From the NCBI RefSeq assembly GCF_003334385.1, contig NZ_QOWN01000073.1: a stretch of 7,140 nucleotides of DNA. One strand, written 5' to 3'. Origin of the DNA: Escherichia coli (GTDB lineage: Bacteria; Pseudomonadota; Gammaproteobacteria; Enterobacterales; Enterobacteriaceae). Position 1 is the stretch's first letter, and every line of letters begins with the position of its first letter. The position numbers were made by a program, and so were the translations under genes. Shown here piece after piece: positions 983 to 5,788 of this stretch. The notes under the pieces are model-generated. The model did not search any database. It saw only the letters and a list, made by a program, of their open reading frames with translations, and was not told where the DNA came from.

Positions 983-1067
983 TTCCTGACCGTTATCCGT
1001 TCAACCGCAGCAAAGGCATGATCCGGCCCCCGGAGGCATTTTGCTGCGCGCTAAAGGAGAGAATATT

Positions 1068-1760: not shown

Positions 1761-3251
1761 TTATAAGCCAAAGGATTGCTCATGCCATCTTATCAGTTTC
1801 TGGCTGTAGCACGCATTCAGTTCAGGCAGCGTGATATTGTTTATTTCGGAAAGCAGGACATAGGTGGTTTTTCCTTCCTGCACGACAGAGAGCCTGAGTT
1901 GAGATGCAAGAATGTTCAGCAGGACGTTCAGCTTTTTCCTGTTCCGGAACCGGCCCGGGCCACACTGGAGAATATAATTTTTCCTGACACGGGGCGGGCA
2001 TTCTCCGCGGCACTCCTCAATGAGCCAGTCGAACAGCTCCTCGGCGTCCTTCTGCTGCAGTTCAGATTCATCAGGTAACGCAAATAATTTTTTATATTCA
2101 TCTGTGTACCACGAACTTATTACGACAGCAGACGTCATGATATCGGCAGAGATTTTCCCTTCACCCTGACTGAAATACTGCAATAACGCAGCAATTCTCG
2201 CAATGTTTTCTGTTTTTTTTGAAACATGCCCCCGAAACTGGCTTAAGGGTCCGGAAGGAGACAAATCCTGCTCCAGAACATTATAGTGATCAATAAATAT
2301 TTTTTGCGCTTCAGGAGAAAAATGCAGACAATAACGTTCATCCTTACTGGATTTTTCAATACTGCCTCTGGCCAGTTCCATTAATCGTTCATGAAATGCC
2401 GTTAATGATCCTCCCGGGGTCACAGCTCCGTTAATAAAGCGTTTCCCCTGCGTGGTGGCAGGTTTACTGATTAGACAACGGGCAAGAAAACCACTGTCCC
2501 TGGCAACAGAACCTTTTCGCTCCATATATCGGTCAAAAAGACCGGGTTGTACCATGAGGGATAATGTCATTCTAGCATTTTCAATCATCTGTTCGGGTTC
2601 ATTCTTTCTGTCCACCGACAATACGGAGCCATCCCACATTTTGTTAATAAAAGGCAGCTCAGACAGGGTATACCCATCAAATATTATACCGGCTTCATCA
2701 GACATGATACCCACTGAACGCCACTGACCACAAAGCTGATCTTTAATTGCTGCTGTCGTGGCATCATTAAAAATGAATTTATATCTTACAGGTTTTTCCC
2801 CTCTGTTTTTCTGAAGCGCTTCCAGTTGTCTGAGCGTTTCTGACTCATCCGCGCCTTTGCGGAGTTCTTTATTCAGTTTTGACAACAATGCTTTTTTCTG
2901 CGCCTTTAAAAGCTCTTCCTTATTTTTCCATATCGTCAGTTCATTTTTGTGTCTGGAATATAACAGCATCTCCTGCTGGTACAGGGGCTCCATTAATAAT
3001 TTGTCCACTGCGGTTTTTCGTTCTCCGGACTCAGCAAGCGTCAGTAAGAAAAGAGAAACCGGCCCCCGCAGTGTATTCAGTCTGCAGACATCAATCAGAT
3101 TCTGGCAGACAAGTGAAACAGCGCCCAGGGCAGATGCTGCCACAAGCCCCAGGGGAGCCTGCGTGATTTGCTGAGCTTCAATAACGGCATCACGAATGAG
3201 TGGAGGCAGCGAGCTCAGGGGAAACTCATCAGGATACTGAAAGTATGGCAT
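1761..3251 (-). CDS. P-loop NTPase-like protein, tentatively DUF3987 / YfjI-like family (~496 aa)
   Basis: Long uninterrupted minus-strand ORF in AT-rich DNA, where long chance ORFs are unlikely. Preferred start is ATG at 3251-3249 with GAGGT 5 nt upstream; the track ORF starts at GTG 3269. Stop TAA (complement of 1761-1763). Protein contains a degenerate Walker A-like LAESGERKT and a Walker B-like GIMSDEAG, plus an N-terminal PLSSLPPLIRDAVIEAQQITQAPLGLVAASALGAVSLVCQ stretch that I recall as typical of DUF3987/YfjI-like proteins. Family assignment is recall-based and unverified. Confidence 0.55.
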   Translation of the reverse strand: MPYFQYPDEFPLSSLPPLIRDAVIEAQQITQAPLGLVAASALGAVSLVCQNLIDVCRLNTLRGPVSLFLLTLAESGERKTAVDKLLMEPLYQQEMLLYSRHKNELTIWKNKEELLKAQKKALLSKLNKELRKGADESETLRQLEALQKNRGEKPVRYKFIFNDATTAAIKDQLCGQWRSVGIMSDEAGIIFDGYTLSELPFINKMWDGSVLSVDRKNEPEQMIENARMTLSLMVQPGLFDRYMERKGSVARDSGFLARCLISKPATTQGKRFINGAVTPGGSLTAFHERLMELARGSIEKSSKDERYCLHFSPEAQKIFIDHYNVLEQDLSPSGPLSQFRGHVSKKTENIARIAALLQYFSQGEGKISADIMTSAVVISSWYTDEYKKLFALPDESELQQKDAEELFDWLIEECRGECPPRVRKNYILQCGPGRFRNRKKLNVLLNILASQLRLSVVQEGKTTYVLLSEINNITLPELNACYSQKLIRWHEQSFGL

Positions 3252-3744
3252 AATGACCTCACAACACACAGAACATAAAGTACCGCAACTATTGCTACTA
3301 ATAGCAAAAATAGCAGCAGAATCAATACAGGATAAAAATTTCTGTCGATTTTCAGATTAAATAATAACCATTCGGTATTTTGTCGCTAAAGAATGTTAGA
3401 ATGAATCTGTGCGTCTACGGGCGCTCTCCGGAACACACATGTTGATTAATTTTCACACAACAACGTACCAGCAAAAAGCATCATCCAGGGTATTGCAGGT
3501 ACGGGTTTCCTGCCGGGAATAAACATAAACAGTTTCCCCGGAGTAACGCTTTCAGAAAACTGCCCTCCTGAAGAAGAATAAAATAAAGAAGATGACAGTT
3601 CCTGCACTGAATGCTGAGTACAATATTCTATGGACAGGATGACATTTTTATAAATAACAAAAACCATTTAATACTGATACATCAATAAAATACTTCCTCC
3701 CTGCTGACACAGATAAAATGCAACATTTTTTCTTCAAATACTTC

Positions 3745-3753
3745 TGTATAATC
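3745..3753 (+). promoter_or_regulatory. candidate sigma70 extended -10 element (TGTATAAT) inside the AT-rich region
   Basis: tgTATAAT at 3745-3752 on the + strand with no good -35. AT-rich DNA produces many such matches, so this is weak. Confidence 0.2.
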
Positions 3754-4084
3754 GCCAGCCAATGATGAGAATGGATTAAAATAACACTTCTTCGACAAAC
3801 ACAAAAACCAGCCTTCATTTTCACATCATCATCCAGTTTTAATTAAACCCTGACGAGCGACAGTATTTCAGTTCAGGAATTAAAAGCCAGCTATTACTCA
3901 GTAAAAACACCACCAACTAATAATATCTCAGCAGATATTTCCTGACCAGGATGACACATTTATTAAAGATTTTTAACAGGACACTTCACATTACTGAACG
4001 CTATTCCGACAGTATCACTACACAAATAAAAAAGGGAACTGGATAAATATTCATGCCGGAAGAATGGTGTAACAAAAGCATTTA

Positions 4085-4097
4085 ATCATTACGTGCG
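4085..4097. repeat. 13-bp direct repeat, copy 1 (atcattacgtgcg)
   Basis: Exact 13-mer atcattacgtgcg at 4085-4097, repeated at 4209-4221; the two copies flank the 30-bp palindrome. Confidence 0.6.
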
Positions 4098-4110
4098 TAT
4101 TCCTCTCTAT

Positions 4111-4140
4111 TCGATCACGGTTTGGCCAAACCGTGATCGA
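4111..4140. repeat. perfect 30-bp palindrome (15+15, no spacer) carrying two GATC sites
   Basis: tcgatcacggtttgg|ccaaaccgtgatcga is exactly self-complementary; GATC at 4113-4116 and 4135-4138; central TGGCCA. Read directly from the sequence. Confidence 0.9.
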
Positions 4141-4208
4141 TTCAGATGCCATTTTGCAAGTACGCATGACCCGGAAGGGAAACACTTAACAACATGGTAT
4201 CAACAGAT

Positions 4209-4221
4209 ATCATTACGTGCG
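4209..4221. repeat. 13-bp direct repeat, copy 2 (atcattacgtgcg)
   Basis: Exact second copy of the 13-mer at 4085-4097. Confidence 0.6.
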
Positions 4222-4527
4222 CACTCTTATAAAAATACACAGCAGAAGCAAGATAACTCTAAACGTAAATTTAATATCTCCCACTGACTGCCCCGACAAT
4301 ATACTGAAAAATACTCACCTCAGTAAACATAAACACACCTGATAATCAGGCTGCAAGATGAATATTTTTCTCCTTTACGGAGTAATCAGCCTGCTGTTTA
4401 ACAATAACCGCGTATTTTCATGGAAGGATATCACCCAATAACGGATAACTCCTGCCCTCCTTCATGTTAATACGCAACATCCCCATCGATTCCAAACAAT
4501 TTCAGACAGATATTATCTCCGTGAATC

Positions 4528-4567
4528 CCCCGCCACCTTTCCGGTGTGCGGGGTTTTGTCTTTTTTC
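4528..4567 (+). terminator. intrinsic (Rho-independent) terminator-like hairpin plus T-tract immediately upstream of the GTPase start codon
   Basis: Stem ccccgccacc (4528-4537) pairs with ggtgtgcgggg (4543-4553) as 10 bp with one bulged T, loop tttcc, followed by ttttgtctttttt (4554-4567). GTPase ATG is at 4583. Confidence 0.5.
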
Positions 4568-5539: not shown

Positions 5540-5610
5540 AGCTTGATAATAGAATAAAACGATCGATACCTATTTTATCGATCGTTAATATCGATCGCTA
5601 TACTAATAAT
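5540..5610 (+). promoter_or_regulatory. agn43 (flu) promoter / phase-variation switch: OxyR-binding region with three Dam GATC sites
   Basis: Three CGATCG motifs with GATC at 5561-5564, 5580-5583 and 5593-5596 (spacings 19 and 13 bp), ~200 bp upstream of the flu ATG. This matches the known Dam/OxyR epigenetic switch of agn43. Exact -35/-10 and TSS cannot be fixed from sequence alone; TTGATA at 5543-5548 is a candidate -35. Confidence 0.8.
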
Positions 5611-5760
5611 AACTCCTGTTAGCAACGTGCGCAGATACACACAGACATGAGATTCAGGGAACAACAGAGCCACACGTCAGAAACTTCCGTCAGCCGGACC
5701 TCCGGCACTGTAACCCTTTACCTGCCGGTATCCACATCTGTGGATACCGGCTTTTTTATT
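5567..5760 (+). ncRNA. isrC: agn43 leader RNA / IsrC-like small RNA (prematurely terminated flu 5' leader); boundaries approximate
   Basis: The 3' end is defined by the intrinsic terminator at 5724-5760; the 5' end is assumed to be the flu TSS near the GATC cluster. From memory, an sRNA (IsrC) is annotated in the yeeP-flu intergenic region of E. coli K-12; coordinates here are inferred, not verified. Confidence 0.4.
5724..5760 (+). terminator. intrinsic terminator in the flu leader, ~30 nt upstream of the flu start codon
   Basis: Perfect 12-bp stem gccggtatccac (5724-5735) / gtggataccggc (5740-5751), loop atct, followed by ttttttatt (5752-5760). Confidence 0.75.
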
Positions 5761-5788
5761 CACCCTCACTCTGATTAAGGAAATGCTG

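Follow-up and report, generated by a model that had tools for sequence, protein, structure and literature searches.

A conserved stem-loop between alpA and the Aec62-family gene of enterobacterial genomic islands

The 7,140-nucleotide (nt) stretch of Escherichia coli DNA analyzed here (contig NZ_QOWN01000073.1 of assembly GCF_003334385.1; hereafter, the window) contains an intergenic spacer (positions 983-1067, + strand) that lies between the coding sequence of an AlpA-like helix-turn-helix (HTH) protein (776-982) and the ATG, at 1068, of a gene encoding a 190-amino-acid (aa) protein of the 'Aec62' family. We found that this spacer harbors a two-tiered stem-loop, which recurs before the homologous gene in about ten enterobacterial genera, retains its pairing while the sequence of its arms changes, and accompanies the downstream gene rather than alpA. 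The structure is neither a canonical terminator nor a promoter, nor does it belong to a known RNA family. We tentatively propose, with a confidence that stops somewhat short of calling it probable, that it is a conserved cis-acting leader element on the + strand mRNA, which would set the expression of the downstream cistron independently of alpA.

Anatomy, conservation and pairing of the stem-loop

The outer arms of the hairpin, CGCAGCAAA (1006-1014) and TTTGCTGCG (1040-1048), were located by a repeat search; they are 9 nt long, 100% complementary and 25 nt apart. Within them, TCCGG (1022-1026) and CCGGA (1030-1034) form a second, inner stem around a CCC loop. An earlier note on this sequence had reported this repeat, at coordinates that proved exact, and an inner ccgg..ccgg. 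RNAfold extends the outer stem to 1006-1017 / 1036-1048, with 12 pairs that include G1015-U1039 and with a bulged A1038, such that the 5' arm CGCAGCAAAGGC (1006-1017, +) pairs with the 3' arm GCATTTTGCTGCG (1036-1048, +). The outcome is a GC-rich, two-tiered stem-loop (1006-1048) contributing about -22 kcal/mol, in line with the earlier note's description of the spacer as structured. Upstream of it lies a pyrimidine-rich, G-poor flank (983-1005, +), in which a second TTATCCG is found at 992-998. The apical hairpin, UCCGG-CCC-CCGGA (1022-1034, +), has a stem that is nearly invariant across genera and a variable loop, and it is overlapped by a Shine-Dalgarno-like GGAGG (1032-1036, +), half of which lies within the apical stem and which, in an anchor-based alignment, is followed 7 nt on by a constant CUG (1044-1046). 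The 3' arm also contains, 4 nt after GGAGG, an in-frame TTG (1041-1043, +), a possible alternative start that would yield a 199-aa product (open reading frame, ORF, 1041-1640). The stem ends 5-7 nt before the ribosome-binding site AAGGAG (1054-1059, +), close to the ~6 nt given by the earlier note, and the start codon of the 190-aa gene (ATG, 1068-1070) follows. Past the stem the sequence reads CGCTAAAGG (+ strand) or GTTGAACGG (- strand), neither of which begins a run of T, and no terminator is predicted, which bears out the earlier note's view that the structure does not look like a terminator.

Judged from the window by itself, the repeat does not exceed chance expectation. Approximately two perfect 9-bp inverted repeats within 80 nt are expected in 7.1 kb (estimated as 7140 x 80 x 4^-9), and this one is among the shortest of the 13 inverted repeats of the window. 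Folding of a 93-nt segment gave z = -0.67 for the + strand and z = -1.09 for the - strand, with 47/200 and 30/200 shuffles, respectively, folding as well as the native sequence. It is the conservation of the hairpin in other genomes, as described below, that argues for its reality.

A BLAST search of positions 700-1700 against complete E. coli genomes matched part of the query in 4283 of 5426 genomes; in a spread sample of 40 BLAST records, 22 match query positions 1-348 only. Homology with many other E. coli islands, at 85-91%, runs through alpA and the hairpin and ends at 1047, the penultimate base of the 3' arm. The exact spacer type of the window is present in 1010 of the 5426 genomes, in one to three copies each (median one), at the alpA locus type only, and is never annotated. 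Among three aligned E. coli islands the stem is kept via an A-U to G-C exchange, and the E. coli variants form an A-U / G-U / G-C series at 1012-1013 against 1041-1042.

Beyond E. coli, a scan for AlpA proteins with one genome per species yielded 80 loci (here and below, individual loci of any source are denoted by L and a number), and in ~25 of these the same architecture follows alpA. From 5' to 3', it consists of a variable 5' arm, UAUCCG, a variable loop, CGGAGG, the 3' arm, usually CUGCCUGUCAUU, a Shine-Dalgarno sequence and the start of the homologous gene. The hairpin precedes the Aec62-family gene in Escherichia, Serratia, Kluyvera, Enterobacter, Citrobacter, Hafnia, Pectobacterium, Rahnella, Cedecea and Mixta, and the architecture was further observed in Photorhabdus, Klebsiella and Trabulsiella-like metagenome-assembled genomes. 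The 5' flanks of these other lineages are almost G-free (for example, ACCTCTCCCCTAACTAAACCC and ATACCTCTCCTTACATATCACTTTCC) and ~20-77 nt long. A covariance model built from nine Serratia/Kluyvera-type copies matches the copy of the window (24.9 bits, E about 1e-3) and finds one copy per locus, always on the strand of the gene; over 430 kb it found nothing convincing elsewhere, including no second copy flanking the zinc-ribbon insertion described in the next section.

Alignment of these sequences shows that the apical pairs 26/38, 27/37 and 28/36 are kept in 22 of 23 of them, with a closing pair that covaries (GC/CG/AU). The UCCG/CGGA inner stem, the GG on its 3' side and the CUG seven bases after GGAGG are nearly invariant, CGGAGG-N7-CTG being found in all stem types, and the apical loop varies in both length (3-8 nt) and sequence (CCC, CUACC, CCUG, UCAUU and AUUCCA). 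The conserved unit is larger than the 9-bp repeat to which the earlier note had confined the stem: the arms were correct, and to them are added the G-poor 5' flank, the two-tiered hairpin, the invariant GGAGG-N7-CUG and, in most lineages, the CUGCCUGUCAUU tail.

A pattern scan of metagenomes was too loose, giving 120 matching stretches with 80 loci listed, among which only L139 and L155 are true members. Two loci of the soil metagenome Ga0213877 (L113, 3504-3545, and L125, 9547-9588) hold a perfect hairpin, GCAGCAGAAUGG-UCCGG-CGUAG-CCGGA-GG-AUUCUGCUGC, which matches the motif nearly completely and lies in an unrelated context, flanked by other long perfect palindromes; this match is probably due to chance or convergence. 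In four further loci (L006, L007, L015 and L031) alpA is followed directly by a zinc-ribbon gene, and the 110 nt after alpA hold a different, conserved spacer, also with CTGCTGCC and CCCGGGA motifs, to which the hairpin covariance model gave no match.

At least nine types of outer stem were found, all of which pair and all of which surround the same apical hairpin: CGCAGCAAAG, GCAGCAGA, GCAGCA-GAAAAU, UGACAGGCA, ACAGGCAGC, CAGCCAG, CAG..CGUA, CCGU and GAAUAACAGAC. In the covariance-model alignment, 91% of the cells pair, compared with 36-50% when the partners are slid by 1-3 columns; seven pairs are changed on both sides, and none of 500 shuffles reaches the covariation score. In an independent arm test, using one representative of each of the nine types, cognate arms paired at -15.6 kcal/mol and non-cognate arms at -11.8 kcal/mol (exact permutation p = 2.8e-4), while a control with the 26 nt directly upstream of the true arm gave -7.8 kcal/mol. 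An alignment across related islands had been suggested by the earlier note as a check, and its outcome, together with these tests, indicates that pairing has been maintained through compensatory change across lineages. An alternative hairpin proposed by RNAalifold (AGGU..GCCU) was weak and is absent from the window.

Linkage of the stem-loop to the downstream gene

The earlier note had tied the hairpin to alpA, as a possible means of coupling the downstream gene to transcription of the alpA operon; such coupling is neither borne out nor contradicted by the present analysis. In the genomes compared here, the hairpin belongs to the gene of the 190-aa family. In four loci (L025, L061, L070 and L221) alpA is followed by a zinc-ribbon gene and only then by the hairpin, which still lies directly before the ribosome-binding site of the Aec62-family gene. 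Two Pectobacterium loci, L059 and L070, show no relationship (~45%) ahead of the hairpin; at the first base of the 5' arm their identity rises to 95-100%. CGGAGG lies 47 nt from the AUG in most copies, 44-49 nt in others and 35-37 nt in the window and L025. The ribosome-binding site comes 7-20 nt after the stem, and where the zinc-ribbon gene intervenes the hairpin keeps 10-25 nt from it; the distance from the upstream stop codon to the hairpin is variable (~20-77 nt), and a ribosome that ends translation of alpA would stop short of the stem. Furthermore, the matches to the covariance model have a constant orientation and position relative to this one gene family.

The hairpin is missing where alpA and the gene abut, with gaps of 2-12 nt (L209, L224 and L225); gaps of this size are those of the distant relatives of 168-171 aa (Duffyella and others). 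In Providencia/Proteus the leader of the homologues is shorter and lacks the hairpin, and a Salmonella variant carries a degenerate version of it. Its absence where the genes abut or the leader is short fits an optional regulatory insert.

Stems around Shine-Dalgarno-like sequences are not confined to the spacer. The initiation region of alpA itself (740-775, with CCGG at 740-743, CCGGAGG at 760-766 and ATG at 776) can form a stem between an upstream pyrimidine motif and the Shine-Dalgarno sequence, a stem that is also found in L010, L041, L047, L059 and other loci. Its sequence is, in many lineages, that of the apical stem in the spacer hairpin; the window's own version is weak and lies outside the minimum-free-energy fold. 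Across lineages, the two sides of this anti-Shine-Dalgarno/Shine-Dalgarno stem covary (UCCGG-N14-CCGGAG, CUUCUG..CAGAGG and UCUCC..GGAGA), and so RNA stems around Shine-Dalgarno-like sequences appear to be a theme of this operon. The long non-coding region before alpA (401-800) has a strong excess of C over G (GC skew -0.24), similar to the G-poor flank of the hairpin.

Candidate modes of action

If the spacer hairpin is the leader element that we propose, we infer that it is transcribed and that RNA is its active form. It would be read from the + strand, within a transcript that also carries alpA, and would comprise the G-poor pyrimidine-rich flank, an outer stem of 7-12 bp free in sequence, an internal loop, the invariant UCCG/CGGA apical stem, GG and CUG. 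It would act post-transcriptionally, setting the level of the downstream cistron independently of alpA; at the 5' edge of this cistron it would form a stable barrier or structural handle. Most likely it would mark and protect a processed 5' end (segmental mRNA stability), and/or the exposed GGAGG may be a recognition site for a factor or the ribosome; the stability or processing version takes roughly half of the tentative confidence that we give to a leader hairpin in general. The + strand RNA reading is suggested by the hairpin's unchanging orientation within an operon-like array, by its fixed position ahead of the start codon and by analogy with the alpA start stem. Assignment of the strand by G-U/A-C counts or by folding energy was also tried, and both were neutral.

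Several observations weigh against this proposal. Co-transcription of the spacer with alpA and folding of the RNA in vivo are assumptions. Both strands fold equally well (mean -19.1 kcal/mol on + and -19.8 kcal/mol on -, with 36 G-U pairs each), and although G-U outnumber A-C combinations on the + strand by 21 to 9, a single column of close relatives accounts for 11 of the 21. The strongest alignment statistic derives from an alignment fitted to the model and so leans towards structure; within single sub-families covariation is weak, with a single, non-significant double change each in E. coli and in the Serratia type. In the copy of the window the CUGCCUGUCAUU tail is missing and the spacing is shorter (37 nt). 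The ribosome-binding site is predicted to be equally accessible in native and shuffled leaders (unpaired probability 0.48 and 0.47, respectively; mean z 0.11), and thus the predictions give no hint of a translational on/off switch; the same figures leave unsupported the idea that the pyrimidine-rich flank masks the ribosome-binding site as an anti-Shine-Dalgarno. Finally, the near-invariance of the inner stem, GG and CUG calls for sequence-specific recognition, of which a plain stability hairpin has no need.

The main rival, which we regard as unlikely, is that the hairpin is an attenuator. Lacking a U tract, it would have to be Rho- or factor-dependent: Rho would load on the G-poor, C-rich flank and the hairpin would act as a pausing or insulating element, rendering downstream transcription conditional, or else the barrier would be overridden by an antiterminator of the AlpA type. 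The position of the hairpin, directly after the gene of a small HTH regulator in an operon-like array, is in keeping with this, as are the nearly G-free, C-rich 5' flank of most lineages, the moderately T-rich sequence after the stem in several of them and a layout resembling lambda cro-nutR-tR1 (C-rich rutA, boxB hairpin, rutB, cII). There is also a precedent, as AlpA of Pseudomonas aeruginosa bypasses a hairpin terminator located just before its target gene (PMC7969949). However, neither a U tract nor a predicted terminator was found in the window, the C-rich stretch of the flank, at only 20-45 nt, is short for a rut site, and the apical loop is variable, unlike that of boxB. Near the spacer there is no match to boxA or to the AlpA-binding element, the spacer has no match in Rfam, and the AlpA of the window has no sequence match in the PDB beyond 8c3t and TorI, and thus none that would point to kinship with the P. 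aeruginosa antiterminator.

The invariant core could also be read as a recognition signal in its own right. It is conceivable, though quite unlikely, that the hairpin, the G-poor flank and the UCCG/CGGAGG core together form a new recognition RNA for AlpA, the Aec62 protein or RNA polymerase, acting as a nut/put-like or operator-like gate of the island's downstream replication/maintenance module, with the alpA start stem as a second site.

The earlier note had left open whether the structure was a regulatory RNA or a protein-binding site. A conserved structure is indeed present; a double-stranded DNA operator, in which AlpA or another island regulator would bind the palindrome (TCCGG..CCGGA and the outer arms) to control downstream transcription, appears improbable. 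Its appeal is that a DNA-binding HTH protein is encoded next door, that TCCGG..CCGGA also occurs just upstream of the alpA start in many lineages, as expected of a shared operator, and that the strand test is neutral. But the half-sites are variably spaced, the gap between TCCG and CGGA being 5-7 nt at the hairpin and some 14-16 nt near the alpA start, and the outer arms vary in sequence and shift in register by up to 6 nt against the conserved 3' sequence, whereas AlpA is 72-96% identical. At the alpA start, moreover, the partner changes with the Shine-Dalgarno sequence in lineages that lack CCGGA, which is the behavior of an RNA stem, and a + strand scan of 400-1800 for sigma-70-like promoters, which did not cover activator-dependent or other promoter types, found none in or beside the spacer. 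A promoter within the spacer was considered separately, including one with the geometry of a leaderless mRNA (CTGCCT as -35 and GAWAAT as -10); it is unlikely, as the -35 element matches at only 3/6 positions, all lineages conserve a good Shine-Dalgarno sequence and the scan was negative.

We attach equally little probability to the idea that GGAGG-N7-CUG is a weak, structure-masked start that tunes initiation at the main AUG, either as a pseudo-start or as a leader mini-ORF. Its products, a proposal that we also consider improbable, would be a 4-codon MPVI peptide in many lineages and an N-terminal extension in others, with TTG 1041 giving a 199-aa isoform in the window. In its favor, GGAGG-N7-CUG is invariant in all stem types, the same anti-Shine-Dalgarno/Shine-Dalgarno design occurs at the real start of alpA, and the codons CUG CCU GUN AUU UAA have synonymous-looking third positions (GUC/GUA/GUU and AUU/AUA). 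A 99%-identical protein of CFT073 (A0A0H2VD60) is deposited as 199 aa; RefSeq/PGAP uses the ATG at 1068. The frame of the CUG is inconsistent, however: it is in frame in the window, L002, L059 and L211, stops before the Shine-Dalgarno sequence in most Serratia/Kluyvera-type copies, and is out of frame and overlapping in others, and on account of these inconsistencies among lineages we rejected the leader mini-ORF. CUG is a very poor start codon, and its constancy is also explained by its pairing with the invariant CAG of the 5' arm; the TTG is not conserved, being CTG in L215.

A role confined to DNA, in which the hairpin would mainly be a crossover point or insertion hotspot of island modules with no regulatory role, is very improbable. 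Module borders do coincide with it. Identity between the window and L002 (about 2849) is 97%/92% upstream of the 3' arm and drops to about 53% after it, with the break at 1047-1049 of the window; the homology between L059 (2737) and L070 (3300) breaks exactly at the 5' end; and in E. coli strain EC17CM13 (L229, about 170) an element of the insertion sequence (IS) family IS3 lies directly after the 3' arm and has removed the downstream gene. Homologous crossovers would nonetheless gather at any conserved patch between divergent modules, as an expected by-product, and this idea leaves unexplained the pairing through different arms as well as the fixed orientation and start-codon distance. The sequence has no core sites of integron attC (RYYYAAC / GTTRRRY), and the inserted zinc-ribbon gene has no second hairpin on its other side. 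An origin of rolling-circle replication for the neighboring G2P-like protein was likewise rejected: the loop is not conserved and the G2P-like gene is also found in loci without the hairpin.

Lastly, an intrinsic terminator of alpA or a chance palindrome is scarcely credible: a GC-rich stem does follow the stop codon, and the window alone stays within chance expectation, but no lineage has a canonical U tract on either strand, no terminator-like site was found in the scan of 400-1800, and conservation with changing arms in about ten genera excludes chance.

The island and its relation to known systems

A chromosomal island of E. coli O10:H32 NMBU-W12E19 matches the window at 100% identity; it has a backbone of the CP4/P4 type and carries, in order, an hha-like gene, the alpA-like HTH gene, the 190-aa gene, a YfjI-family helicase, a YeeP-like GTPase, the IsrC RNA and Ag43. 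The alpA-like gene (776-982, +), the upstream cistron, encodes 68 aa (RefSeq WP_001095916), and its product matches PHROG excisionase/regulator families and, by sequence in the PDB, only an AlpA-family protein (8c3t) and TorI. The 190-aa gene (1068-1640, +) was assigned by the RefSeq annotation of the identical record and by a family alignment, and the YfjI-family helicase (1761-3269, -) by the identical island record. The order of G2P-like protein, alpA and Aec62-family gene is widely conserved, and the last of these has a Shine-Dalgarno sequence 8-13 nt before its AUG in every lineage. The 190-aa protein has no match in Pfam, PHROG or NCBIfam and no known domain, and all of the Aec62-family homologues found are labeled 'hypothetical'. 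Its AlphaFold2 model, a confident one, predicts an all-alpha fold with one beta hairpin, for which fold comparison gave no informative neighbor. The Aec62 family is not a typical phage module, because a protein-family search of viral contigs gave only 3 loci.

Other structured sequences were observed in the window and in related loci. A full-length Rfam match to the IS102/IsrC RNA (5559-5764, +; 256 bits, E 9e-50) is flanked by the YeeP-like GTPase gene and by Ag43, an arrangement shared with prophage CP4-44 of K-12, and the inverted repeats 5558-5586 and 5724-5751 fall within it. A perfect 30-bp palindrome with no spacer (4111-4140; TCGATCACGGTTTGG / CCAAACCGTGATCGA) is located in a 1.2-kb stretch (3270-4540) between the YfjI and GTPase genes, where the only ORFs are short (44-73 aa); GC content falls to 34-39% at 3601-4400. 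Between the convergent 190-aa and YfjI genes there is a 9-bp perfect inverted repeat (1680-1711; CCGTCACCC / GGGTGACGG) with a 14-nt loop and no T run after it on either strand. Weak matches to the Vibrio RNA AS5, below the Rfam gathering score of 96, were found upstream of alpA, near the G2P-like gene, in L059 (1392-1514, -, 33.9 bits) and L211 (111-235, +, 23.8 bits).

Islands with alpA, Aec62, the YfjI helicase, the YeeP GTPase and Ag43 are very common; in the literature on alpA/yfjI/yeeP and Aec62, we found nothing on the spacer. The outcome of this analysis is an undescribed leader structure, widespread in enterobacterial islands, before a conserved gene of unknown function, and its alignment and model could seed a family of the Rfam type. 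The stem also gives a handle for work with compensatory mutations. Should it prove to be only a stability or insulator hairpin, the result would be of local interest.

We compared the hairpin with several known systems, beginning with Rfam 15 (4227 families), in which the spacer had no match at E <= 1, either in the window or in seven loci with other stem types. Phage P4, the positive control, gave C4 (74.9 bits), isrK (60.8) and c4-a1b1 (44.1), and with the window and the seven related loci negative, we rejected an immunity RNA of the P4 CI/C4 type. Like the P4 immunity region, the spacer places what would be a structured RNA right after a gene of the AlpA/Vis family in a P4-type element; unlike it, the spacer matches none of the C4, isrK-like and a1b1 RNAs of P4 and has no complementary target repeats nearby. 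The lambda nutR/tR1 region and the put RNA of HK022 similarly follow a small HTH regulator gene, with a C-rich, G-poor flank, a hairpin and then the next gene. The differences are that there is no N-like gene and no Rfam match at the spacer, and that lambda boxB is a 15-nt hairpin with a GAAAA loop, whereas the spacer hairpin is ~45 nt long and two-tiered, with a variable loop; the boxA consensus (GCUCUUUA) had no match with up to one mismatch near the spacer. The P. aeruginosa AlpA module, with an AlpA-binding element in the promoter and the intrinsic terminator tB before alpB, also has alpA followed by a hairpin before the first downstream gene. The spacer hairpin differs from it in having no U tract, no sequence relationship between the AlpA proteins was detected, and the AlpA-binding element GGGACG-N5-GGTA gave only 2-mismatch matches, at chance frequency, none of them near alpA or the spacer.

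A dispersed repeat of the repetitive extragenic palindromic (REP) or bacterial interspersed mosaic element kind was rejected as well: REP elements occur in hundreds of dispersed copies, compared with the one to three copies per E. coli genome, at one locus type, of the spacer hairpin. Intercistronic stem-loops give segmental mRNA stability, as in the processing of E. coli papB-papA and in the REP-stabilized malE-malF. Those hairpins need no invariant apical sequence, unlike that of the spacer. The likeness lies in a stable hairpin without a U tract between two cistrons, the upstream one of which encodes a small regulator, an arrangement that would set differing levels of the two products. The spacer hairpin is thus a previously undescribed, modest motif of a well-known kind, the conserved intercistronic or leader stem-loop.

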